IMG/VR virus record: IMGVR_UViG_3300042542_003555
Span: 32,001 to 96,000 of that record
Length of the DNA stretch: 64,000 nt
Source of the DNA: a virus
Reading direction: 5' to 3' (one strand)
In this document: positions 9,794 to 32,845 of the stretch, piece after piece
How the letters are laid out: every line of letters begins with the position of its first letter
Numbering within the stretch: the stretch's first letter is position 1
Program-made: the position numbers and the translations under genes
The notes under the pieces: generated by a model
The model's database searches: none
What the model was told of the DNA's origin: nothing
The model's input: only the letters and a program-made list of their open reading frames with translations

Positions 9794-11014
9794 TTAGTAT
9801 TCTACGATGACTACACCTGATGCACCAGCGCCGCCACCAACAAGCGCAGCACCCGGAGGGTTTGCACCACCACCAGAACCACCACCACCATATTGTCTTC
9901 CGGCAAAACCGCCGGGACTATAACCCCCGGTCGATTTTGCTCCTGCCCCCAAATAGCTATCTCCTCCCGTAGGACCAGCCACACCTATTCCACCCGTGAA
10001 TGGAGCACCCCCACCCGCACCACCAGCGATGTTTAAATCACCACCAGATCCAATACCACCACAAGTGCCAGGGGCAGCAGATGGGCCGGAACTACCACCA
10101 GACCCTCCTGTTGCACTAACTGATGCTGGAGATCCGAATGATGATGTTCCACCTGCTCCGCCCGCACCTCCTGCTGGGCCCGCTGTTCCGGCAGCCCCAA
10201 CAGTTACTGGATATGGAGTTGCGGCAGAAACAGGAATTATCTTAATGGCAGCGCCGCCGGCACCTCCAGATGATCCGAAATAAGGATCACATCCAGGTTG
10301 ATGTCCGCCTGCTCCACCTCCCCCACCACCTACGACAGTTACTTTAATTTTTGTTGTAGAGGGTGGTGTAGTAAATGTTTGACCTGGTGTAGTTGAAGTA
10401 AAAGTTGTAATATTAGTAAACCCACCCGATGGAATTACACCTGGTGCAATCTGTGGTGCCGTAATTAATCCTGTAATCTGAGTGTTTGCAATACTCAATG
10501 CGGTCTGTGCAGTCCAATATGGTTTACCAGCACCCGCACTGGTCAATAAGTGACCTGTTGTTCCTACATCAGTATTGGATGTGGTGTTTGCTGCTGATTG
10601 ATAGATGACTGTACCTGCTGCACCTCCAGCAATATTTGCAATGGTGTTTACAGAATATGCGTAGACAGTAATAATATCATTTAATGCTGCTGCCGTAGAT
10701 AATGTAATACTTGTTCCGTTTGATGCTGTGAATTCTATCAGAGAATCAAGTAGAACACCATTGAGGAATACTTGTACATAACCAACAGTATAACTTACGC
10801 TAAACACGGTTTGTCCTGCTGTTGCAGTAAACTTTGTTTGTGTATAGGTTGTTGCTCCAACACCAGCACCAGCACCTGAAACTGTTGCAGCAGTCGCACT
10901 GGTAATTCTTCCTTGTGCGTCAATCGTAATAATAGGTACCAATGATGAAGAACCATAAGTATCAGCAACAACACCAGTGTTAGCTAGAACCGAACTTGTG
11001 ACTTTTGTTGTCAT
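9794..11014 (-). CDS. Tail fibre protein with Gly-rich C-terminal domain
   Basis: ITIDAQGRITSA fibre motif; C-terminal domain paralogous to 8627..9499 and 50087..50797. Confidence 0.7.
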   Translation of the reverse strand: MTTKVTSSVLANTGVVADTYGSSSLVPIITIDAQGRITSATAATVSGAGAGVGATTYTQTKFTATAGQTVFSVSYTVGYVQVFLNGVLLDSLIEFTASNGTSITLSTAAALNDIITVYAYSVNTIANIAGGAAGTVIYQSAANTTSNTDVGTTGHLLTSAGAGKPYWTAQTALSIANTQITGLITAPQIAPGVIPSGGFTNITTFTSTTPGQTFTTPPSTTKIKVTVVGGGGGGAGGHQPGCDPYFGSSGGAGGAAIKIIPVSAATPYPVTVGAAGTAGPAGGAGGAGGTSSFGSPASVSATGGSGGSSGPSAAPGTCGGIGSGGDLNIAGGAGGGAPFTGGIGVAGPTGGDSYLGAGAKSTGGYSPGGFAGRQYGGGGSGGGANPPGAALVGGGAGASGVVIVEY

Positions 11015-13677
11015 TTGTTATCACCCTTTAAACTGTCTATTTCTCGTTTTAATTCTTTAATCGCTTCAATTAATAATCCTACCATGTTTTGATACATGAT
11101 AGATTTTCCGTTTTCGTTTTCTGATACTAGATATGGTATAATCTTTTCAACATCTTGTGCTATCAGACCCATACCTTTATCACCAGTGTCTTTCCAGTTG
11201 TATTCAACACCTTTCAACTGCATTACAGTATTTAACGCATCTGCTATTTCTACTATATTTATTTTCTGATTTATATCAGATGTTGAAGTCATCACAGTAG
11301 ATGACAGAGTTCCTGTAGATGGAACATAAGTCAGTTTACTACTTGACGTATTAGCGATAGTTAGTACACCAGAAGTTTGTGATGTAAATGTAATATATCT
11401 GGTATCAGAACTTGCAGTTTCATCACTTAATCTTGGACCTACTAGACCAACAATGCCTGTGTTTGCGACAGAACCCGCAGATCCAGTTACACTAGCAGTA
11501 AATGTTACTCCAGAGTTTGCTTTGTTGCTGACATATGCCGTGGTAGCAATCTGTGTATTACTTACAGCAATGTCAGCAGTTGGTGCTAAAGGATATCCAA
11601 TAAATGTTGGAGATGCTAGTGTTGCTTTTCTGCTCTCTAAGTCATTGATTGCCAACTGAATTGTGTTAGCACCAGCATCAATACCACCTTGTGGTGAAGT
11701 AAATGCAATATTATTTGCATAGTATGGATTGTTAATGAATCCATCTACTTCAAGAAGAATAGCATCGTTGAGTGAAGGTGCTACTGTAAACGAAATCGTT
11801 GAGTTAGAAATATTTGCAGTATACTCAGATTCAAACTGTCTGACACCATTGATGTATGCTCTCAGTTGTGTTGCAGCAGAGAACGTTGGTGTCGTATAGG
11901 TTACTTGAGTACCTGATGCAGTATAGGACAGTCTTGTTGAGTTGATGGTTGTTCCTGGTGTTGCACCTCCACCACCTCCACCTCCACCGGCTGCCCAATA
12001 GTAGTTTCCAACACCACCAGTTGTTAACACATATCCCGCAACAGCACCAGACGGTAACAAATTGGTCAATGCACCTGTAGCAGAAGTTCCTCCAGTACCA
12101 CCTTGTGCTAATGCAAGAGGTGATGAAAGAGTTAAACTTGCAAATGTTGGTGAAGCTGTACTTCTTAAATCTTGTGATGTATTAACGGTTAGTACATTTG
12201 CAGTACCAGATATAGTAAGACCATTCCCGCTATTGAAAGAAATTACTCCATTACTTGCAACTGCAACACCAGACGTACCAACAAATGTTCCCCCACCAAT
12301 ATTTGCTCTGTTAAATGCTGCCTGTGCAAACACATTAACACTAGTAATATTAGTGTTAGTAGTAGTCATCTGTGCTTGTAGTGCTACAGTGTTACCTGAT
12401 GCTCCGCCGCCAGTGTTTGCTGTACTAAATGCTGCCTGAGCAAAAGTGTTTAATGCTGATATATTTGTGTTTTGGGTATTGTCTACACCTTGTAGATAAC
12501 TTAAAATAGTATTGGCTGCTTTTGAACTTGCAAGTGTCGATGAACTTGTAGAATTTGTAGAATCGCTGATCAGATTAGCGATAAGAATTCTAGAATAACC
12601 AAGAGTTGTTACATCCTTTACTTCCCAATAATCTTGAATTTCATTCCATCTAATTTCAGCATTAGCATTTCCTGGTCCTCTATATGAACCAAAAGTTCCG
12701 TTTTGTGGAACTGACGCATCAGCATTAATAGTTAAAGTATCTGAATTGTATACTGTGTCACCATTAACTACAAAGTTACCTTGAACAGAAATTGTGTTTG
12801 CTACAAGGCTGTCTACGTATATGTCTGATCCATTAGCATCGAGTGTATTCGATACAATAACATATGGACTTGTTACACTAGTATTTGCTATTAAATTGTT
12901 TGATCGTACATTACTTGATGCAGTAATTACAGGTGCCCAGATATATTGTCCAGCAGAAACATAATTGCTTCCGTATGCTGTTGTCGTTGTAAATGTTGTT
13001 GTGTTTACTGTAGAGTTAGCCTGAACTGCATTGATGTGTGCAGTACCACTTACTACTAATGTTGGTGATGTTAGTTCGGTATTTGCTTGTACTTTATCAC
13101 CCAACACATTTGCAGATGCAGTAACATCTTTAGAAACAACATGATTGGTTGTTCGAACAATCTGTGATGTTACATTTAGTCCAACAGTTAGATTGTTTGC
13201 AAAATTAACATTACCATTTTGAACATTTAATTTTAATGGTCCTGCTGTTGCTGAACCTATATAAACATTACCATTGGCATCAATAACTGTTGAGTTTGCT
13301 GGTGCTTGTCCTGATCCACCAGGTTGACTATTAATGCGTATCGCTAATCCGCTACCTGATTGTGTGATATTGACTACATTGTTGCTGTCATTGGCAATAA
13401 AATAATTGTTTGACGAACCAATAATCTGACCATCAATCTGCATATTCTTTTGAACATACAGAGAAGAACCAATACCAGAAATTTGCAGTTGACCTTGAAT
13501 AGTAGCATTGTTTGCTACTTGCAAACCAAGACTAGGAGAATTTAGAAATAAAGTTCCTGTTGGCTTGATAAAATTATTAGCTGCAAAATCATTGTTTTCT
13601 TGGGCCAGTTTGTTTGTTGTAACTACCCAATCACCAAATGTGTTTGCATAACTTAGTAGAGTAACGGTATTAGCCAT
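11011..13677 (-). CDS. Tail fibre protein with C-terminal S74-like chaperone
   Basis: SPTFIGYPLAPTA..NTQIATTAYV fibre motif; C-terminal LKGVEYNWKD..GLIAQDVE. Confidence 0.8.
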   Translation of the reverse strand: MANTVTLLSYANTFGDWVVTTNKLAQENNDFAANNFIKPTGTLFLNSPSLGLQVANNATIQGQLQISGIGSSLYVQKNMQIDGQIIGSSNNYFIANDSNNVVNITQSGSGLAIRINSQPGGSGQAPANSTVIDANGNVYIGSATAGPLKLNVQNGNVNFANNLTVGLNVTSQIVRTTNHVVSKDVTASANVLGDKVQANTELTSPTLVVSGTAHINAVQANSTVNTTTFTTTTAYGSNYVSAGQYIWAPVITASSNVRSNNLIANTSVTSPYVIVSNTLDANGSDIYVDSLVANTISVQGNFVVNGDTVYNSDTLTINADASVPQNGTFGSYRGPGNANAEIRWNEIQDYWEVKDVTTLGYSRILIANLISDSTNSTSSSTLASSKAANTILSYLQGVDNTQNTNISALNTFAQAAFSTANTGGGASGNTVALQAQMTTTNTNITSVNVFAQAAFNRANIGGGTFVGTSGVAVASNGVISFNSGNGLTISGTANVLTVNTSQDLRSTASPTFASLTLSSPLALAQGGTGGTSATGALTNLLPSGAVAGYVLTTGGVGNYYWAAGGGGGGGGATPGTTINSTRLSYTASGTQVTYTTPTFSAATQLRAYINGVRQFESEYTANISNSTISFTVAPSLNDAILLEVDGFINNPYYANNIAFTSPQGGIDAGANTIQLAINDLESRKATLASPTFIGYPLAPTADIAVSNTQIATTAYVSNKANSGVTFTASVTGSAGSVANTGIVGLVGPRLSDETASSDTRYITFTSQTSGVLTIANTSSSKLTYVPSTGTLSSTVMTSTSDINQKINIVEIADALNTVMQLKGVEYNWKDTGDKGMGLIAQDVEKIIPYLVSENENGKSIMYQNMVGLLIEAIKELKREIDSLKGDNK

Positions 13678-13900
13678 TTGAACCTTTTTCTAATAGTTTC
13701 AACATCAAAGATTTAATCTCTGTCATATCTTCTTTGATGCCAGCAATTTCTTCCTTTACTGTATTTATTTCTTCTTTTTGGGTCTTGAGCATACGTGCCT
13801 TAGCATAATATTCATTTCTGGCATCTTCGTCTGTGTTTATAATTGCCATACTTTTTGTGTCCCTAACATAATTTGTTCCAGTAACTCGTACCAGTGACAT
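13670..13900 (-). CDS. Small conserved coiled-coil protein
   Basis: VRDTKSMAIINTD...EIKSLM pattern usually found after the DUF4815 gene. Confidence 0.65.
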   Translation of the reverse strand: MSLVRVTGTNYVRDTKSMAIINTDEDARNEYYAKARMLKTQKEEINTVKEEIAGIKEDMTEIKSLMLKLLEKGSNG

Positions 13901-13901
13901 A

Positions 13902-16094
13902 TTAGATTCCTGTTCCTGATGGTAATGCTAACGCACGTAGGTCTGACAGATATGGTACTTTTGGACTATCATCTGATGCAAACACTACCTTGATAGCAAA
14001 TTGACTGAATTGTGTATAAGTTTTACCGTTTGTACTTTCATATGAAATAAAGTTATCTGCTACATTGTTTGTTCCTGGAGCAAATTCATATTCAATTAGG
14101 TTGTCTTTGGCTAATGAGTACACATTAGGATTACCAACTTGCGTCATCAGTTGCCAATAACCATCTTCAAACGGTTGTGTATCATCTCGGTTCAGAATCT
14201 TATAGTATACATAAATTCCTGTACCTAATGGTTTGTATGCTGTACAGAATACTCTCAAGTCGCCCGAATCGTTTCCTTGTGTCAATACAACTTTCTTAGT
14301 GAAATATCTTGCGAATGAGTTTCCACCACTACTTGAAGTTTCACCGTATACAACAACATTTGCTGGACTTGTGTTAGCACCTGTAATTGTAATGGTTGGT
14401 GTAGTGATATATCCTGATCCTTCATTGATCACATATACTGAAGAAATAACATCTGATGTTCCATTATTTGCAACTGTAAATCCTAAAGTTGCAGGATCGG
14501 AACCAATGTCTGGAGCACTAATAACGATTGATGTGTTTGCTGGGTCTGTGTATCCTGAACCTGTATTTGCTACGGAGATCACATTGTTTGATATACCCAT
14601 ATTGTTAATGATATTCTGCACACTATACACAGTAACACCATCATCTGAGATGATTGGGCTAACATTTGGATCGGTAGATGATAATGTTGCATACATTGAG
14701 AATGTATCATTGATTGTTTTAATCAATGCTCTTTGTCCTCTACCATCATCAAATGTAATATCATCTTGTGTTGGTGATCCTAGTTTACCGGGAGTTGCAG
14801 AGAATGGACCAATAGGAACATTTCCTTCAGCAAGAACCGCAGTATATGAATAATTAATATTTGTGCTAGTTGGTACAAAGTCTGTCGTTGTTAAGTTGAC
14901 AGCATCAGACCAGGTAGTTGTTCCAAAACTACCAAATAAGTTTGTCATATTGTTGGCATCAAGCTTATATTGAATATCTTGACTGCCAAGTTTTCTATAA
15001 GGTAATCCTTTTGGAATAGAAAACTGAATTGCTGGTGTGACAGAAGTATTGAATATGCACCTATCGATAACAAACATTAATTGCTTAGACTGATCTACTT
15101 GCCATGTGATAGAGTTTTGCGATTCAAACAAACCACCAACATATGGTGTCTGACCAATTTTTGATGTTTCGGTTGGGTTAGGATCAGTAGGCAGTGCTTT
15201 TGCTGTAGAAGGAACTGCTGTAGAATTCTGTTGAGCATAATATATGGTATAGTCAGCACTACTTGTTTCTAACATAAATGCATACAGAACATCGCCTTGA
15301 ATATAAACAGGAGCTTTAAATACAAACTCTGTATATGTCGATGCATCCAAATAATGAGGATTTTGTGATGTTACAACTTGATTTGCATTTAGTGTCACTG
15401 ATGAATAGTCTAATCTTTGCCCGTTTGGATATCCATTTAGTGTGCCAACGATTGATAATGTAACTGGAACATTAGTCGTTGGCTTAGAACGGAAAAACAC
15501 CTTTACTGAACGAAGAAAAATTCCATTAGGAAAGTTGCTCTTATTAACAATAAACGTTTGAGCAATAGGATCACGATAAGTAACAGTTTGTACAACTCTT
15601 GTTCTTACTAGCTGATTTTCTCTTTGAGATACTTGTACAAATGCACTTGCGGCTGAGTCAACAGATGGCGCAAACTCAAGTTTCTGTGATGTTGTTGCAA
15701 GACCTGATGCAGTGAAAGTTGCTTCAGCAAATGTAGTTGCTGTAGTGGGATCAGAAGAAACTAATCTATTGTCAACTCTAAAAACTCTATTTCCTGTTTG
15801 AAATATGCCGCCAGGAAGATTGAATATACCAACAAAATTTCCAGCTTCATCAGTTGAAAATTTAGATAGTGTATTTCCTTTTTGTATAGCATCAGCAATG
15901 GTTGTAATTTGATTACCATTGAAGTTATATTGTGATGTCACATCTCCAACTTTTGTATTATATCCTAATGATACATTAATAGGAGTATCAAGAGTTACAA
16001 TTTTGTTGATATGATCATATGCTGTAACAGTTGCAACATCAGTTGACGTTGATCCTATATACTCTGTTGGTTCTACTTTATATACGTAAGGCAT
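13902..16094 (-). CDS. C-terminal half of DUF4815/VrlC-like virion structural protein
   Basis: DPIAQTF, GLFESQNSITW and FAIKVV..P..SDLRALA motifs typical of the C-terminal part of this family. Confidence 0.75.
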   Translation of the reverse strand: MPYVYKVEPTEYIGSTSTDVATVTAYDHINKIVTLDTPINVSLGYNTKVGDVTSQYNFNGNQITTIADAIQKGNTLSKFSTDEAGNFVGIFNLPGGIFQTGNRVFRVDNRLVSSDPTTATTFAEATFTASGLATTSQKLEFAPSVDSAASAFVQVSQRENQLVRTRVVQTVTYRDPIAQTFIVNKSNFPNGIFLRSVKVFFRSKPTTNVPVTLSIVGTLNGYPNGQRLDYSSVTLNANQVVTSQNPHYLDASTYTEFVFKAPVYIQGDVLYAFMLETSSADYTIYYAQQNSTAVPSTAKALPTDPNPTETSKIGQTPYVGGLFESQNSITWQVDQSKQLMFVIDRCIFNTSVTPAIQFSIPKGLPYRKLGSQDIQYKLDANNMTNLFGSFGTTTWSDAVNLTTTDFVPTSTNINYSYTAVLAEGNVPIGPFSATPGKLGSPTQDDITFDDGRGQRALIKTINDTFSMYATLSSTDPNVSPIISDDGVTVYSVQNIINNMGISNNVISVANTGSGYTDPANTSIVISAPDIGSDPATLGFTVANNGTSDVISSVYVINEGSGYITTPTITITGANTSPANVVVYGETSSSGGNSFARYFTKKVVLTQGNDSGDLRVFCTAYKPLGTGIYVYYKILNRDDTQPFEDGYWQLMTQVGNPNVYSLAKDNLIEYEFAPGTNNVADNFISYESTNGKTYTQFSQFAIKVVFASDDSPKVPYLSDLRALALPSGTGI

Positions 16095-16117
16095 TTATTT
16101 TTCCAATAAAATAATAG

Positions 16118-19100
16118 TTATTTATTGTTAACAATACAAGCTAACTTTCCAAAAATCTTAAATAGTAGCATTACAGATTTTTGAGTGAACTTGCTTTCAT
16201 CATCTTTGAATGCTTTGATTAGAATCAAATTAACTAGCTTATTATCTAACTTACCAAAATAGTTGTTTAGTAGATAAGCACCATACACAGTATTCTTTCC
16301 AGCTTCTGTGAATTTAATCAGCAAATCGGATGCTCTTTCAGACGTTATGTATTCTCTCTCGGCCACTTTACGAAGAACACCACCTTCTCCTATAATGGAT
16401 GTTGTACCATACCCATTAACTTGATATGTACCATCTCCATCTACCCATAGATTGTATACGGGTTTGCCTTCTGCTGGAACAACATTGAATGGTTTGATTT
16501 GTTTTGTTCTACCTAACCAAGGATACGCTTCATAAATTTCATCCGAAATAGGACTACACAATTCACCATCAATATATAATGGGTGATTGATTGTTGCAAA
16601 TGGTTTCTCATCTTCTTTTACTGAATATAGTTGTTCAAATTTCGTATCAAGTGTTTTTTCAACGAAAGTAACTGTATTAACTTCTCTTTTCTTCCAATTG
16701 TATACTTTATCACCAACTTGAACTTCACTAATTTTCTTAGTTGAACCATCTGCAAGAAGCACTAAACTATCCTCAGTAAAACATCTTCCTCGGCGGCGTG
16801 GTGGTGGAGGAGGAACATATGTTGCTGTTTGAACTGTGTATGCAAATATGTATGTCGATGTAACACTAAGTTTCGTTCCTACATAATAGTTTGCAACATT
16901 AGATGCATTACCATCTAGTTTAACTTTTGTTACTCCAGTGAACCATGCTCCACCTTCAGGCATAACAACAACCTGAGCAACACTATCATAGTTTGTGTTT
17001 GGTGGACTTGTTGATTCAAATACAATTTCATCTGCGGCATTCTTAATAACAACAGCAATACCAGAAGGACCAGGAGATCCAGTTACAGACCAAGCAAGTG
17101 TTTTTGTTCCTAATGATGCTACGTTAAGGCTTGCTTGATTAACTGTTGTTGGGTTTGCAGCACCAGAAATGATTGTACTTCCATTTGATGTTAAGGTGTA
17201 CGCTCCAGATGACGAAACTTGAACTGTATATGTACCAGTATCTTCTGGAGTGATAGCAAAGGTTGCTGAGTATGATGCTGATGCATTTAAATCACCCCAA
17301 ATACCATATTGATTCAAGAACGTTCCCCATGCATGAGAGTTTTGAACTTTATAGAGTTGTAATCCACCAGTTATGGAGTTATTATAACTTCCACCAACAC
17401 CACTGAGCGTTCCTGATGTGGATAGTTTAGCAGTTGCCGCAGCAGTATTTAATGTTCCGCTTGCTGTTGATGATGTATATGTTCCACCAGAATTAAATAA
17501 CGCATTCTGGAAAGTGTTTGTTGGAACATATGATGGAGCACCTTGCAGCGTTGAAAGATATAATCTTACATTACTTGTGTTTGGATATTTGTATATCGAA
17601 ACAACACGTCCTGTTGCATTAAATGCGTTATTGTAATAGAATCCAACAATATCATCTTCATTAAATGTACCAGTTACACCAGTTAGTTCTAGTGTGTTTG
17701 GTGAAGTGAGATAATTATCAACACTAACTCCATCAAACCATGCAGAAACTGGAGTGTTAACTAATAATCCTTCTGCTCTGAATATTAACTGTTGTGGTCT
17801 AATATATGGTAAAACAGAGATATTTGTAATATAACCATTACCTAATCCAACAGTAGATGATACTTGTTGATAGTTACCAGCAGTAGTTATGGTTTGTAGT
17901 TGATCTTGGTATGATCGAGTTGTCGTTGTTGTAGTAACTGCTCTACCAGATGAAGATGTTGATGTTGAAACTATATCATATGATGTTCCAGGAATAGTTG
18001 TCCAATCACCAGCGTTTACAACATTGACTCCGTTTGTTTGTTGATATACTTCAGTACCTGGATTTACAATCAGCAACGAAGGTGCTTGACTATTGTCTAC
18101 CCAGTTATCCATAGGTGGAGTAATTCTCGCAACGCCTTGATATACAGCAACATTAAATGGATTCAGACTGATAGTTGAACTAGCAAGCGACTGAATAACC
18201 ACATTTGATGATGTATATGGTAGAGTAAAAATATTAGTTGATGTACCACCAATACTTGAAACCGCAATGTTGTTGAATGTTCGAAGTGTTCCCAGTGAAT
18301 TTAGAACAATTGGGTTTTGCAGTTGATAGTTATCAACAGTATTGATAGGACTTAATCTTCTTTTAGTCGTATTAATCTTTGCTGCGTAGTCAGGATTTGC
18401 TGTATCAGCAGCAGAGAAAGAAGAAAAATCATCTACCAAAATACCATTTTTAAATCTATTCAGTCCATTTACATCTGGCACTTGTAATGATTGTGCATTT
18501 GTTTCCAGTAAACTTAGAGAGGCATAGTATTCTAGATCGTTAACTCTTGTTTGCAGATCAGTGATATCTTTTTTGATCCAGTTCTTATTTAATACCTTTT
18601 CGATGGATAGGTTTGCTTGACCACCACCTGGTACCTCACCTGGAATATATGCTGTATATGGATCATAAGATAGATTTGCTAATACTAATGACCCATCTGG
18701 TTCTTTTGGTAACGTTGGGAATATAGATGGAGTTCCTTGTACCATCAAGAATGCTCTATCTTTTGTTAGAACAAGTTTATCTTTTCTTCCCAGATAATAA
18801 TCATAATCACTGACATATTCGCTTAGGTTTTCTGGAATTAAAATACCTGTATCATCTGCTGCTGGGTTACCGGTATAGTTGAATTCAAATGCTGCTTGTG
18901 CATTTTTTCTCACAGGTCTGAAATCAAGTGCATCGGCAAGACGATATACTGTTCCGTTTGTGCTGATATATGTAGAAATTTCTTGATATACTTCAGGTGA
19001 AGATGAGTTTGGTGCAAGGTATGAATTTACATCAAAGTATCCATCACCACCAGTATGTGAATAGTAATCAAATACAACTAGAATATTGCCTTTTGGTTTA

Positions 19101-21535
19101 TTTGCACCAGCAACAAGAACTAAAGATGCATGATCATAATAGTTATCTCTTTGCCCATTATCTAATCTAAACAGACTAGTAACATCATAAGCAGCATTAG
19201 ATAGCATTGCACTTGTTGCTGCTGTGCCTGGAGATTTTGTATCAATGATCTTTCTAATTTTCTTCACATCAGAAACATATAGTGAAGTGATTGATCCAAT
19301 ATCAGCATTTTGAATGTAGGCTTGACCTTTATTTAAATCAAGATATGTGTTATTGATTACGCCACTAGGACCAGCAATACTTGCAGATGTTGTGTTTCCT
19401 GTTACAAGATTTTTTGTTTTTAATATATTGGTTACATTGTCCGCATTTGAAACATTAACTGCTGCTATTACATCAACAACAATACCACCATAAGTGTCTG
19501 TTGTGAAGGTTACTGTCTTTTTGTCGCCAGAAAGAACTACAGTCTCACCAGATGATGTGAAGTCTAATATCTTTCCAGTCGCTCTATTAATGATTGTAAA
19601 GTTTTGTTTAACGGCATCTGAAGATAATGTTCCAGTACCCAAGAATGTCAGAGGAGTGCCAGCACCAATAGTGATGGTCAAAACGTAATTTGGTCCAGAA
19701 GAAGTAAATGTTTTTGCACGGAATACTTTAGTTGAAACATAATCACTGTTGCTGATATTTGCAACAAATGGATATCCAACTAAGAATAACATTTCTGGTG
19801 CATTTGGATTTTCAAGAATAGTGTCACCAGAAGCTACACCATTGAGTTTTCCTGCATTAGCAATATCTGCTGTAGCAATGATTACATTACTACTGTTTCT
19901 TGCAACAATAGAGTCAACAATTGTAGTCGAGAATTTCAAACTGAATTGTGTTGTGCTATCTGGTGTAACTGTAAATGGTGCATCAACTGTTGCTGTTCTG
20001 GTTGCTCCATTATATGAAACAATTCTTCTAATATCACCCACACTTGTTCCACCCGTGATAACAATAGTTGTAGAATAGTATGCATTTGCGGCAGTTGAGA
20101 ATTTACCACCAGCACCAGTGCCTGAGAAAGTAATTGTCGTTGGTGTTCCTGATGATGCTATTCCATTTAATGCATTTGTATTGATATCAGAAACATATGC
20201 CTTGTAGACATATGATGGAGTATTAGCATTTGATGTTGAACTTGAATACTTTAAGTTTCTTATACGTGCTGAACCAACTAATGTTGAGGCATATGTGGCT
20301 GTATTAGTCGTTAAAACATCAACGTTAGGAGTACAATGCAGATCAATGACTGGCATTGTAGTAACATCAAATGTTCCGTTTGCTGATGTTACTGTGAAAT
20401 AGCTGCCATAGTCAACAAATACAGCATTATTATTGATTGCATCTGTTGTTCTTGCTCTATTGATGCCACCCAATACTTCATCGGATTGATTTTCGATTCT
20501 ATAACCACGAACGTAAGCAAGTCCTTTACCAATCTTCAAATCATATTGTGCTGAATTCACTGTGTTTGCAGATGGTGTTAGCTTAAATTCATCAACAATA
20601 TAGTCACCATTGCTTTCGAAATCTCTCTTTGCAAAGTAATCATCGATAACAGAATAAACACTGTTATCTACTTGTTTGATAATAGTTCCATTACTTACTC
20701 TTACAAGTTCAATAAACTGATCATCATTTCCTGGTGTTAGTGGTAATGAAATAAGATCAAGACCAATCTTGAATCTATCAGCACCAGGTGCTTGATAGTT
20801 AGATGCACCAACAGCAGGATCTAATAATGAAGGATCGTTAACATAGTCAACAATTGTTTCCGTGATAGAAAGACCAACACGATATGATGGTGTATTGCTA
20901 TACTTGTCCAGAACAATAGTTTGTGGTGAAACTTGTACAAAATGTCCAATTGAATACTTGCTAAATGTTCCATCAGGATTCGGTGTTGATGAAATATTAT
21001 ATCCATTTACAATATAAAAAATACCTTGAGAAATGGATGCAGTAGATGTTTTTCCGGTGCAAGTGCTGAAGCCAGTAGAACCAATTGTTGTTGCTGTAAA
21101 GTTTGATCCATCAGTACAGAAGATTTGCATATTGTCTGTGAACTGAACACCAGAGTAATATGAAACATATAACGTAGGTGGATCTGCTTGTGAAGCTTCT
21201 GTCGTTGCAATTACTTTTGCTCTTACGATTCCTTCAGCATCTTGAATATCTTTGTTTAGAAAATTTTCAGCTATAACTTCTGTGCCAATTAGTGTTGTAA
21301 GATTTAACTTTACGTAATAGTTATTAAGGTTAGTTGTTACTTTACCACCAGAAACTGGAGAGTTCTGTGTGAAAATATGATCAGCAAAATTACTGATCTG
21401 ATTTTGTAGAATCGTTTGAGCCTGTGTTAATTCTCTCGCCTGAACCGCAAATCCTGGCTTAAATAGTATTCTATGAAAATTCTTTGTTGGGTCAAAATCA
21501 TCAAAATACGGATCAACGTTAAAATTTAGAGCCAT
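16118..21535 (-). CDS. N-terminal part of DUF4815/VrlC-like virion structural protein fused to a Hint domain
   Basis: PYFDDFD..KNFHRILFKPGFAVQARELTQ, APGADR and RFKNGILVDDF motifs; C-terminal Hint. Confidence 0.85.
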   Translation of the reverse strand: MALNFNVDPYFDDFDPTKNFHRILFKPGFAVQARELTQAQTILQNQISNFADHIFTQNSPVSGGKVTTNLNNYYVKLNLTTLIGTEVIAENFLNKDIQDAEGIVRAKVIATTEASQADPPTLYVSYYSGVQFTDNMQIFCTDGSNFTATTIGSTGFSTCTGKTSTASISQGIFYIVNGYNISSTPNPDGTFSKYSIGHFVQVSPQTIVLDKYSNTPSYRVGLSITETIVDYVNDPSLLDPAVGASNYQAPGADRFKIGLDLISLPLTPGNDDQFIELVRVSNGTIIKQVDNSVYSVIDDYFAKRDFESNGDYIVDEFKLTPSANTVNSAQYDLKIGKGLAYVRGYRIENQSDEVLGGINRARTTDAINNNAVFVDYGSYFTVTSANGTFDVTTMPVIDLHCTPNVDVLTTNTATYASTLVGSARIRNLKYSSSTSNANTPSYVYKAYVSDINTNALNGIASSGTPTTITFSGTGAGGKFSTAANAYYSTTIVITGGTSVGDIRRIVSYNGATRTATVDAPFTVTPDSTTQFSLKFSTTIVDSIVARNSSNVIIATADIANAGKLNGVASGDTILENPNAPEMLFLVGYPFVANISNSDYVSTKVFRAKTFTSSGPNYVLTITIGAGTPLTFLGTGTLSSDAVKQNFTIINRATGKILDFTSSGETVVLSGDKKTVTFTTDTYGGIVVDVIAAVNVSNADNVTNILKTKNLVTGNTTSASIAGPSGVINNTYLDLNKGQAYIQNADIGSITSLYVSDVKKIRKIIDTKSPGTAATSAMLSNAAYDVTSLFRLDNGQRDNYYDHASLVLVAGANKPKGNILVVFDYYSHTGGDGYFDVNSYLAPNSSSPEVYQEISTYISTNGTVYRLADALDFRPVRKNAQAAFEFNYTGNPAADDTGILIPENLSEYVSDYDYYLGRKDKLVLTKDRAFLMVQGTPSIFPTLPKEPDGSLVLANLSYDPYTAYIPGEVPGGGQANLSIEKVLNKNWIKKDITDLQTRVNDLEYYASLSLLETNAQSLQVPDVNGLNRFKNGILVDDFSSFSAADTANPDYAAKINTTKRRLSPINTVDNYQLQNPIVLNSLGTLRTFNNIAVSSIGGTSTNIFTLPYTSSNVVIQSLASSTISLNPFNVAVYQGVARITPPMDNWVDNSQAPSLLIVNPGTEVYQQTNGVNVVNAGDWTTIPGTSYDIVSTSTSSSGRAVTTTTTTRSYQDQLQTITTAGNYQQVSSTVGLGNGYITNISVLPYIRPQQLIFRAEGLLVNTPVSAWFDGVSVDNYLTSPNTLELTGVTGTFNEDDIVGFYYNNAFNATGRVVSIYKYPNTSNVRLYLSTLQGAPSYVPTNTFQNALFNSGGTYTSSTASGTLNTAAATAKLSTSGTLSGVGGSYNNSITGGLQLYKVQNSHAWGTFLNQYGIWGDLNASASYSATFAITPEDTGTYTVQVSSSGAYTLTSNGSTIISGAANPTTVNQASLNVASLGTKTLAWSVTGSPGPSGIAVVIKNAADEIVFESTSPPNTNYDSVAQVVVMPEGGAWFTGVTKVKLDGNASNVANYYVGTKLSVTSTYIFAYTVQTATYVPPPPPRRRGRCFTEDSLVLLADGSTKKISEVQVGDKVYNWKKREVNTVTFVEKTLDTKFEQLYSVKEDEKPFATINHPLYIDGELCSPISDEIYEAYPWLGRTKQIKPFNVVPAEGKPVYNLWVDGDGTYQVNGYGTTSIIGEGGVLRKVAEREYITSERASDLLIKFTEAGKNTVYGAYLLNNYFGKLDNKLVNLILIKAFKDDESKFTQKSVMLLFKIFGKLACIVNNK
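16119..16125 (-). promoter_or_regulatory. Possible late promoter (ATAAATA) for the second half of the split gene
   Basis: Box overlaps the stop of 16118..21535, about 25 nt before the ATG at 16094. Confidence 0.45.
16397..16783 (-). other. Hint (Hedgehog/intein) domain, about 129 aa, without the terminal His-Asn
   Basis: Block A CFTEDSLVLLADGSTKKISEVQVGDKV, block B ATINHPL, block F VYNLWVDGDGTYQVNG, ending GYGTTS. Confidence 0.85.
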
Positions 21536-31978: not shown

Positions 31979-32845
31979 TTAAAATATCGTCACGTTCACA
32001 ATTGGTTTTGCTGGTTTGTTCACAGCATTTTTTATAACATTCAACATATTATTTACTGAGGAATCTACTGTCTCTGAAAAATTATCAAGAGATTGACCAA
32101 TAGCTTCAGCACCTGCAACCACAGCCTGCGTTGCCTGCTCTGCTAGAGTTATGTTTCTTTGCAGTGCTTGAATTTCACCTAATAGTCCACCTGTATCTAA
32201 TCCTAACGTCACTGAGAGTGCAGAAGCAATAGCATTTTTTATAGCAGTAATACATTCTGCTAAAGCTTGACCAATTAGAGCAGGTAAATTGGCAACAAAA
32301 TTAATTAATGCTGCAATGTATCTTTCAACTTGCGCCAACAGTAAAGCACCAACAACATATGTTTCTATCAGTTTGTTGATATATCTTAATTTCTCTGCTA
32401 TATATCTTGCTATTTCAGTTATAGATGTTGCAAGTGGACCACTGATACCTAGTGCATTAAGTGCTGATTGAACAATTGCTCTGATTGTCTGCACAATTTG
32501 TTGAAATTTTGAACTCTTTATGAAAGCTTCTAGCTGTAAAACAGGATTACCTAATGCTAAGTTTGGAACTTTAAGTCCACTTCTACCTAATACCATTTGA
32601 GTATTTTTTGGTAACGGTGAACTGAAAGGTTCGCAGAAATGAAAACCTGGTCTATTGTTGGGCGATAGCGCACCATTAAACACACCTCTGAATGTGTTTG
32701 CTGTCTTTTGAATTCCTTCAATCTGTGCATCAGTAAAGAAACCTGTAGATGGTGGATTTTTTTCTATGATATAAATTTGACCATTATTTGCAAGTTCATA
32801 GGTCTCACCAACTCTAACTCCACTGAGATTAATGTTTACTGTCAT
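31979..32845 (-). CDS. Helical hypothetical protein between the gp5 halves
   Basis: Amphipathic helix-rich ORF. Confidence 0.6.
   Translation of the reverse strand: MTVNINLSGVRVGETYELANNGQIYIIEKNPPSTGFFTDAQIEGIQKTANTFRGVFNGALSPNNRPGFHFCEPFSSPLPKNTQMVLGRSGLKVPNLALGNPVLQLEAFIKSSKFQQIVQTIRAIVQSALNALGISGPLATSITEIARYIAEKLRYINKLIETYVVGALLLAQVERYIAALINFVANLPALIGQALAECITAIKNAIASALSVTLGLDTGGLLGEIQALQRNITLAEQATQAVVAGAEAIGQSLDNFSETVDSSVNNMLNVIKNAVNKPAKPIVNVTIF

Follow-up and report, generated by a model that had tools for sequence, protein, structure and literature searches.

Why is the gene for a giant baseplate protein broken in two in the middle of a domain, and what does the intein-like module at the break do there? 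The question is raised by a stretch of 64,000 nucleotides (nt), here called the window, which covers positions 32,001 to 96,000 of IMG/VR virus record IMGVR_UViG_3300042542_003555 and is part of a 160,983-bp viral record with an estimated completeness of 96%. Two adjacent open reading frames (ORFs) in the window together encode a protein of the VrlC/DUF4815 type, and the first of them, ORF1, ends in a Hint domain followed by a helical tail (Table 1). On a slight balance of probability, we favour the reading that Hint and tail form a Hog/BIL-like (BIL, bacterial intein-like), N-terminally self-cleaving accessory cap, which is exchangeable and dispensable, and that the two halves of the protein are not rejoined by the module.

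A preliminary description of the locus, made from the sequence alone, had proposed that ORF1 carries, after the linker PPPPPRRRGR, a Hint domain with Cys at position 1, TxxH and block F motifs and an end without Asn, followed by a helical tail. All of these features are present, and the tail is now defined as 91 amino acids (aa) with five helices. An AlphaFold2 (AF2) model built from 57 family members places the Hint beta core and the five helices in a single globule (predicted local distance difference test (pLDDT) 95.1; predicted template modelling score (pTM) 0.89). The structure and profile searches that had been suggested as a check confirm the Hint fold. The family profile matched BIL2, PI-SceI and a BIL among PDB sequences across the whole Hint (E 1e-5), Foldseek of the model gave a Hint match (E 3e-8), and VIA-align placed the model closest to BIL2 of the Tetrahymena BUBL1 locus (6tmm; Z 14.7, root mean square deviation 2.5 over 128 residues). 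All 27 chains at Z>=8 are inteins, BIL, Vint or Hedgehog domains, and the structural neighbours include the gp41-1 intein, a Clostridium BIL (Z 12.5), Vint and Hedgehog (1at0, Z 11.1). Pfam searches of the ORF1 module returned Hint, Hom_end_hint and Vint only, all below the curated cut-offs, and no match to Peptidase_S74 (PF13884). NCBIfam and PHROGs returned nothing but sub-threshold Hint or intein N-terminal matches.

The module has the N-terminal Cys, block B TxxH and block F Asp of class 1 inteins. Lacking are the terminal Asn (or Gln/Asp) of block G, the Hint ending in NGYGT(T/S)S in the window and in the family, and a C-extein with a +1 Cys, Ser or Thr: the 91-aa tail is followed directly by the stop, with no host sequence beyond it in the chain. 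Thus, the module cannot splice, and the non-splicing, Hedgehog-like layout of Hint plus helical C-terminal region that had been claimed for it is correct. Across the family, the Cys1-Phe pair (CF) is invariant in 76 of 76 and 57 of 57 aligned modules, and a terminal HN occurs in none of these 57 or 76. Also invariant are N1620, E1626, F1646, H1651, W1673, L1696 and D1701, along with C1585 and F1586 themselves, and T1648 is nearly so. The invariance of C1585, H1651 and D1701, with T1648 close to it, makes autoprocessing at the N-terminal side the natural reading. The tail carries no conserved catalytic-looking residues in the family alignment and no predicted transmembrane segment (maximum KD19 hydropathy 1.24). 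Foldseek against PDB and BFVD aligned the Hint part only, Pfam gave no match to the tail, and its best VIA-align matches, to IpaH/SlrP ligase-domain helices, reach Z <=5.3, below the level that is meaningful for helical bundles.

ORF1 and ORF2 are one VrlC in two pieces, since both align in order with an unsplit VrlC. The DUF4815 (PF16075) match in ORF1 scores 195.9 bits (cut-off 30), which places it in the VrlC/DUF4815 family. Residues 1-1417 of the 2045-aa VrlC of Pelagibacter phage Mosig align with ORF1 1-1277, and residues 1429-1709 of the same protein align with ORF2 81-375, in the same order. The ORFs, the DUF4815 match and this collinearity bear out the original claim that a DUF4815/VrlC-like protein is split into ORFs of 1805 and 730 aa. 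The nearest isolated phages, Pelagibacter phages Mosig and HTVC008M, have a single VrlC (2045 and 2001 aa) after a gp8-like gene. An elaboration peculiar to this lineage accounts for the approximately 380 residues that flank the break. In these phages VrlC is regarded as taking the place of T4 gp7, as a component of the double-layered baseplate (PMC7029224).

The break falls at the turn of a beta-hairpin. The 38 unsplit VrlC proteins (2178-2462 aa) that we aligned across the junction are continuous there, with 38-63% identity to the ORF2 N-terminus. The alignment shows a conserved small domain, ...YYVGxxIxVTS, a loop, then TATITAYDxxTKxVTLDTPVN..., in which the loop of unsplit relatives has between a few and about 50 residues; ATYVPPP and a Gly stretch persist, without the Hint, in some fused forms. 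In an AF2 model of the shortest unsplit form (P0167, residues 1494-1702), the break lies at the turn of a long hairpin with strands 76-87 and 90-106 and a local pLDDT of about 79-93. The mid-domain split reported earlier is therefore not only upheld but located at a hairpin turn, and what had been called an echo, between FAYTVQTATYV before the linker and YVYKVEPTEYI at the start of ORF2, is explained as the two strands of one hairpin. The "intact copy" of the domain said to occur earlier in ORF1 is only a weak paralogue, the underlying similarity being that of ORF2 14-70 to ORF1 496-543 (E 5e-4).

What relatives carry at this hairpin bears most directly on the role of the module. We compared 65 close homologues of ORF1 1300-1584, all with the same hairpin. 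Hint plus tail is present in about 27 of them, one of which is 94% identical and also 1805 aa long. A module of about 130 aa, with Gly-Gly-Cys-Cys-Val-Val-Ala-Thr at its start and a hydrophobic helix, is found in 8 to 10 others; in nine the module is helical and contains a strong membrane segment (KD19 hydropathy 2.3-2.6), three have a DUF4214-type end, three have a Peptidase_S74 chaperone (P0259-P0261; P0259 with 25.6 bits, cut-off 22) and one (P0228) has a CFI-box-CTERM domain (60.1 bits, cut-off 40). Six clusters have no module and stop 25-45 aa after ATYVPP, so that homologues split at this very point without a Hint, a finding named in advance as one that would count against the original proposal, do exist. 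Other relatives have a fused VrlC. In the forms with no module, with S74 and with Cys-Cys-Val-Val, the next genes are one of 723-731 aa, one of 76 or 87 aa and a large gene cut by the locus end, an arrangement like that of the window. In two of these three forms, those with no module and with Cys-Cys-Val-Val, the first 80 residues of the following gene were translated; they match ORF2 and open with the return hairpin strand. For the S74 form the comparison is one of gene lengths. Because the site tolerates either no module or a fused loop, the VrlC chains do not depend on the module to come together and most likely pair through the hairpin. The earlier suggestion that it joins or modifies the two halves finds no support in relatives that at the same site lack a module, carry S74, CFI-box or membrane modules, or are fused. 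Because the interchangeable cassettes at the hairpin tip include the self-cleaving Peptidase_S74 chaperone, we read the module as an accessory, self-removing cap. It is distinctly improbable that Hint and tail instead stay on the protein and are displayed on the baseplate in a structural or binding role. Some cassettes at the same site (DUF4214-type, membrane-helix) do lack a known self-cleaving activity, but without catalysis there is little to account for the invariance or near-invariance of the nucleophile Cys and of blocks B and F in more than 57 diverged members.

Two of the alternative cassettes share features with the Hint. The Cys-Cys-Val-Val module (P0211, P0216, P0219, P0222, P0226, P0242, P0244, P0249, P0251, P0257 and locus L043) starts directly after the Gly linker, and its Cys-Cys-Val-Val-Ala-Thr-Ala resembles CFI-box-CTERM weakly (E 0.046). 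The CFI-box-CTERM domain of P0228 begins with Cys-Phe, as the Hint does. These two may be further Cys-first processing or anchoring modules.

The type of module differs even between near-identical hosts. On trees of the VrlC core (quick IQ-TREE and FastTree), nine module states need 22 changes, the fused forms nest inside the Hint clade or among the split ones, and sisters can differ in module (Hint in P0215, Cys-Cys-Val-Val in P0219, with branch lengths of 0.045 and 0.046). Fission of VrlC with a module also recurs elsewhere in the protein. At least three split sites with a module were found: the hairpin of the window, a second one immediately ahead of the conserved PIAQTF domain, with MKPIGQTF opening the ORF downstream, and one near the equivalent of ORF1 residue 1235. 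In most loci of the family the module closes a VrlC N-part, and the gap to an ORF encoding the C-part is -1 to 34 nt. Module identity is about 42-48% between phages whose VrlC cores share just 25-33%, and a module better conserved than the VrlC core points to purifying selection, not to a decaying relic. Such a pattern could also be that of a selfish or neutral cassette, in which linker, Hint, tail, stop, ribosome-binding site and ATG move together by recombination between co-infecting phages and are tolerated only in permissive loops because the cassette cuts itself off, with no benefit to the phage. The several VrlC sites, the presence in other genes, the patchy occurrence among near-identical hosts, repeated loss by fusion that leaves Pro/Gly linker remnants, and a module better conserved than its hosts would all suit it. 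We nevertheless regard this explanation as doubtful: no homing endonuclease or drive function adjoins the module (in VrlC loci the next gene begins -1 to 34 nt away), the tail lacks conserved catalytic-looking residues, the window's genome has one copy only, no further one having been found in it, and a genuine chaperone, S74, is among the alternative cassettes at the site. A homing endonuclease next to the module was considered separately and rejected, the gaps being too short.

Under the favoured reading, that of a self-removing cap, ORF1 would be made as an 1805-aa precursor whose last 221 residues fold as a Hint capped by five helices. Cys1585 would attack the carbonyl of Arg1584 (N-to-S acyl shift), aided by T1648, H1651 and Asp1701, and the thioester would be resolved most simply by water or a small thiol. 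The products would be the VrlC N-fragment of 1584 aa, with ...PPPPPRRRGR at its end, and the 221-aa module, and nothing would be spliced. Translation of ORF2 would start independently, at a ribosome-binding site of its own 23 nt further on, and the two VrlC chains would rebuild the small beta domain non-covalently, a hairpin strand from the end of ORF1 pairing with one from the start of ORF2. The cap may serve the N-fragment in folding, assembly or solubility. We infer the cleavage, its nucleophile and timing, and the role of the cap by analogy with known Hint and S74 systems.

Several points weigh against this. The cleavage chemistry is drawn wholly by analogy, and the role as a cap is suggested solely by the position held in common with S74. 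In Hedgehog, hydrolysis of the thioester is slow where a dedicated nucleophile is missing, which leaves room for a specific acceptor. A simple cap leaves the conserved tail and the invariant N1620, E1626 and W1673 unexplained. The complementation check that had been proposed, a complex prediction of the end of ORF1 with its module (1530-1805) and the start of ORF2 (1-130), supports the pairing weakly, with a score of 0.35 (best control 0.00). In a benchmark, this mark was attained by 58 of the 80 solved complexes and by 2 of the 110 mismatched pairs, with scores of 0.60 or less in just 7 of those 80 but in both mismatches. Prediction runs had at least 55% of contacts in common and a partner pLDDT of at least 48. 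The prior for ORF1/ORF2 pairing is high because the chains are contiguous in relatives.

The room left for an acceptor could be filled by thioester transfer, in which the Arg1584 thioester is resolved by the alpha-amine of ORF2, so that VrlC would be made whole again, by a lysine of another baseplate protein, or by a lipid or small molecule recruited by the tail. Parallels are Hedgehog cholesterolysis and the conjugation proposed for Tetrahymena loci with BIL and ubiquitin-like domains. A Hint with a conserved C-terminal helical region is the layout of Hog proteins, BIL2 of the BUBL1 locus is the closest structure (see above), the hairpin geometry would bring the ORF1 C-terminus beside the ORF2 N-terminus, and another lineage has Cys-Gly repeats before Cys1. 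The invariant E1626 lies 41 residues after Cys1, by spacing near the active-site Asp position of SHH, and BIL2 has no counterpart of N1620, E1626 or W1673. In human SHH, D243 is listed among the active-site residues, 45 after Cys198 (PMC7906309). On this spacing, a role of E1626 in nucleophile activation is conceivable. We consider transfer unlikely all the same: relatives split at the same point have no module, S74 or a CFI-box, residue 2 of ORF2 varies among relatives (P, A, S or K, in MP, MA, MS and MK starts), the module also occurs on unrelated short proteins where no continuation of the same protein lies downstream, and the tail has neither a predicted membrane segment nor a fold match to a binding domain. 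Slightly less likely still is the specific form in which the module acts as a Hog-like transferase that links the C-terminus of a virion protein to an acceptor (the ORF2 N-terminus, a baseplate neighbour or a host lipid), with E1626 as base and the helical cap selecting the acceptor.

The separate translation of ORF2 in the cap reading is consistent with its start. The start context TTGGAAAAATAAATG is conserved in the equivalents in L004, L006, L007, L009 and L042, relatives with and without Hint, and from its sequence looks like a ribosome-binding site, spacer and start codon, not a T4 late promoter. A late-promoter-like box had been described before ORF2, and could not be recovered: the T4 late promoter motif TATAAATA is absent in and near the gap (the window holds 5 copies, against 7.7 expected), and scans of the gap for sigma-70 promoters and terminators gave no signal above shuffles. 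The conservation of the gap and of the ORF2 start across loci also speaks against an assembly or sequencing artefact, be it a chimera or a false stop codon, as does the 1795-1820-aa architecture found in dozens of independent assemblies, some at 94% identity. With the architecture of the window recurring in independent assemblies at 94%, 84% and 76% identity (P0199-P0201) and in loci L004-L009, the chimera against which the preliminary description had warned is excluded, and the chance of any such artefact is negligible.

Table 1. Features of the split VrlC gene and of related loci (coordinates are those of the window unless a locus is named).
Feature	Coordinates	Strand	Description
ORF1	16118..21535	-	1805-aa precursor: VrlC N-part, linker, Hint and helical tail
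Predicted mature VrlC N-fragment	16784..21535	-	Residues 1-1584, end ...PPPPPRRRGR; predicted from the invariant Cys1585, cleavage putative
N-terminal half of split small beta domain	16814..16948	-	About residues 1530-1574; outgoing hairpin strand ...TYIFAYTVQTATYV; junction alignment and AF2
Linker PPPPPRRRGR	16784..16813	-	Residues 1575-1584; Pro/Arg/Gly
Hint domain	16394..16783	-	Residues 1585-1714; ends NGYGTTS, no Asn
Cys1585 codon	16781..16783	-	TGT; Hint nucleophile, predicted scissile bond Arg1584-Cys1585
N1620 codon	16715-16717		ORF1; family-specific invariant Hint residue
E1626 codon	16697-16699		ORF1; family-specific invariant Hint residue
Block B	16583-16594	-	T1648-I-N-H1651, within Hint
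W1673 codon	16556-16558		ORF1; family-specific invariant Hint residue
Block F, Asp1701 codon	16433-16435	-	Block F sequence VYNLWVDGDGTYQVNG, within Hint
Helical tail	16121..16393	-	Residues 1715-1805; 91 aa, five predicted helices packed on Hint
Intergenic gap ORF1/ORF2	16095..16117	-	23 nt; GGAA element resembling a ribosome-binding site, within the ORF2 start context ..TTGGAAAAATAAATG
ORF2	13902..16094	-	730 aa, VrlC C-part; phrog_358 match, E 2.3e-87
C-terminal half of split small beta domain	15915..16094	-	ORF2 residues 1 to about 60; return hairpin strand PYVYKVEPTEYI and ..ATVTAYDHINKIVTLDTPINVSLG
76-aa ORF after ORF2	13670-13900	-	phrog_473, virion structural protein, E 1.5e-16
888-aa ORF	11011-13677	-	Matches tail-fibre and baseplate-wedge families
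gp5-type fusion, L034	5206-6696		Baseplate-hub OB-fold N-domain, Pro/Gly linker, Hint and tail
Small helical ORF beside module, L011	6677-6850
Small helical ORF beside module, L019	6494-6676
Small helical ORF beside module, L034	6678-6920
Small helical ORF beside module, L025	699-929
Cys-Cys-Val-Val form, L043	3501-8633

The genes around the split keep a common order. A gp8-like gene is followed by VrlC and then by the 76-aa gene. In locus L042, too, VrlC precedes the 76-aa gene and then a large one of about 889 aa; L043 is consistent with this arrangement, its third gene being cut by the locus end.

The module belongs to a large family. Among 1.84 billion representatives of a library clustered at 50% identity, 486 matched at E<=1e-3 and 102 at E<=1e-30, and IMG/VR holds 38 loci with the module. 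It is the last domain in all 38 of these loci, and it ends at most 60 residues from the C-terminus in the 143 sequences scored (near-full coverage). Its hosts include VrlC N-parts, gp5 OB-fold proteins, Gly_rich_2 proteins and many unknowns. Approximately ten representatives carry a fusion of the gp5 OB-fold to Hint and tail (e.g., P0026, P0038, P0050, P0057, P0070 and P0073), as in L034. Linkers rich in Pro and then in Gly precede Cys1 in most family members. For ten representatives we looked for an NCBI record or an informative name, and neither exists for any of them; P0207 and one other homologue with the Hint, both identified subsequently, are NCBI sequences. In a tblastn search of 50,697 phage records with the module as query, no match passed 1e-5, and a threshold of 0.1 admitted only partial Hint matches (Lak phages, Gordonia terminase inteins, Providencia PSTNGR1). 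No Pfam model for the family was found, nor did a full-text literature search find an account of a Hint plus tail module. Thus, the family is widespread and apparently undescribed.

Some hosts differ in the residues around the module. Cys-Gly or Asn-Cys repeats precede Cys1 in L010, L014-L018 and L020 (e.g., GCGCGCF, NCNCNCNCNCGGGCF), placing extra cysteines at -2, -4 and -6; a thioester relay, disulfides and metal binding are possibilities for these. In other hosts a stretch resembling a membrane helix (KD19 hydropathy 2.3-3.3) ends right at Cys1, e.g., ..WDIIPILLIIAGIGE|CF (P0007, P0010, P0012, P0041, P0086, P0118, P0127; L008, L011-L013, L019). If cleaved, these hosts would keep a hydrophobic C-terminal end. 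Beside the short hosts that are not VrlC, the stop of the module ORF overlaps or adjoins a small conserved ORF, helical and about 57-80 aa long. Its product could be a partner of the module; the window has no such ORF after ORF1.

Tandem mini-Hints, up to seven and canonical-looking, occur in P0005 (residues 1540-2397) and L030-L032, and also in P0099, P0137, P0141 and P0148. We read the sequences of P0005 and L030-L032, in which every mini-Hint opens with Cys and closes with VHN before a Lys. Such arrays separate the VrlC N-part from the terminal Asn-less module in P0005, L023 and L030-L032, and P0005 shares the split context of the window.

Among known systems, the module shares with Hedgehog and Hog proteins a Cys1 in CF, the block B TxxH, the lack of a terminal Asn and a helical region of about 90 aa after the Hint, the whole unit being C-terminal on varied N-terminal proteins, and its Z to 1at0 is given above. 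In many module relatives a Gly precedes Cys1, as in the G|CF of Hedgehog. The Pfam family that most members match (49 of 57) is PF01079, with scores below the curated cut-offs. Unlike Hedgehog, the module is from phages, has Arg at -1 in the window, and has a compact five-helix tail with no detectable similarity to the sterol-recognition region and no membrane segment; to our knowledge, there is no solved structure of that region for comparison.

BIL domains (BIL2, 6tmm/6y75; Clostridium thermocellum, 2lwy) are the nearest neighbours in structure and sequence, and like the module they are autoprocessing Hints outside classical intein contexts. The solved construct of BIL2 is a C1A-N143A mutant, so BIL2 has an Asn near its C-terminal end, whereas the module family never has a terminal Asn. 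Unlike A-type BILs, the terminal module of the window has no HN, the upstream tandem Hints of P0005 and L030-L032 being the ones that end in VHN|K. We know of no BIL described with such a helical cap or at fission points of phage baseplate genes.

Peptidase_S74 is likewise a C-terminal self-removing module on a phage tail protein, at exactly the same hairpin-tip position in P0259-P0261. It is an intramolecular chaperone of phage tailspikes and fibres, and its autocleavage uses a Ser-Lys dyad. Its fold and chemistry are unrelated to those of the Hint module, for which a chaperone action is possible. As with split inteins and the "fractured genes" of marine phages, a phage gene is here broken at a Hint-type element. 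Unlike in those systems, the Hint is complete in ORF1 and ORF2 has no C-intein, its alignment to the host protein starting at about residue 3; there is no endonuclease gene between the halves and there are no splicing residues. A split intein was thus rejected, given that block F sits in ORF1 and that ORF2 3-100 aligns with the host domain of unsplit relatives.

The most familiar examples of autoprocessing by Hints that do not splice are animal Hedgehog proteins and a small number of BIL domains in bacteria and ciliates. The module family adds a large set of non-splicing Hints (the 102 representatives at E<=1e-30) on baseplate and fibre proteins of uncultured aquatic phages, and the module may yield compact self-cleaving tags. 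The VrlC hairpin tip is a natural swap site, at which Hint, S74, CFI-box, membrane-helix, no module and fused forms alternate between near-identical phages, and it thus offers a comparative system for the role of removable C-terminal modules in tail assembly. If an acceptor exists, the module would extend Hedgehog-like ligation chemistry to phages, the viruses of bacteria.

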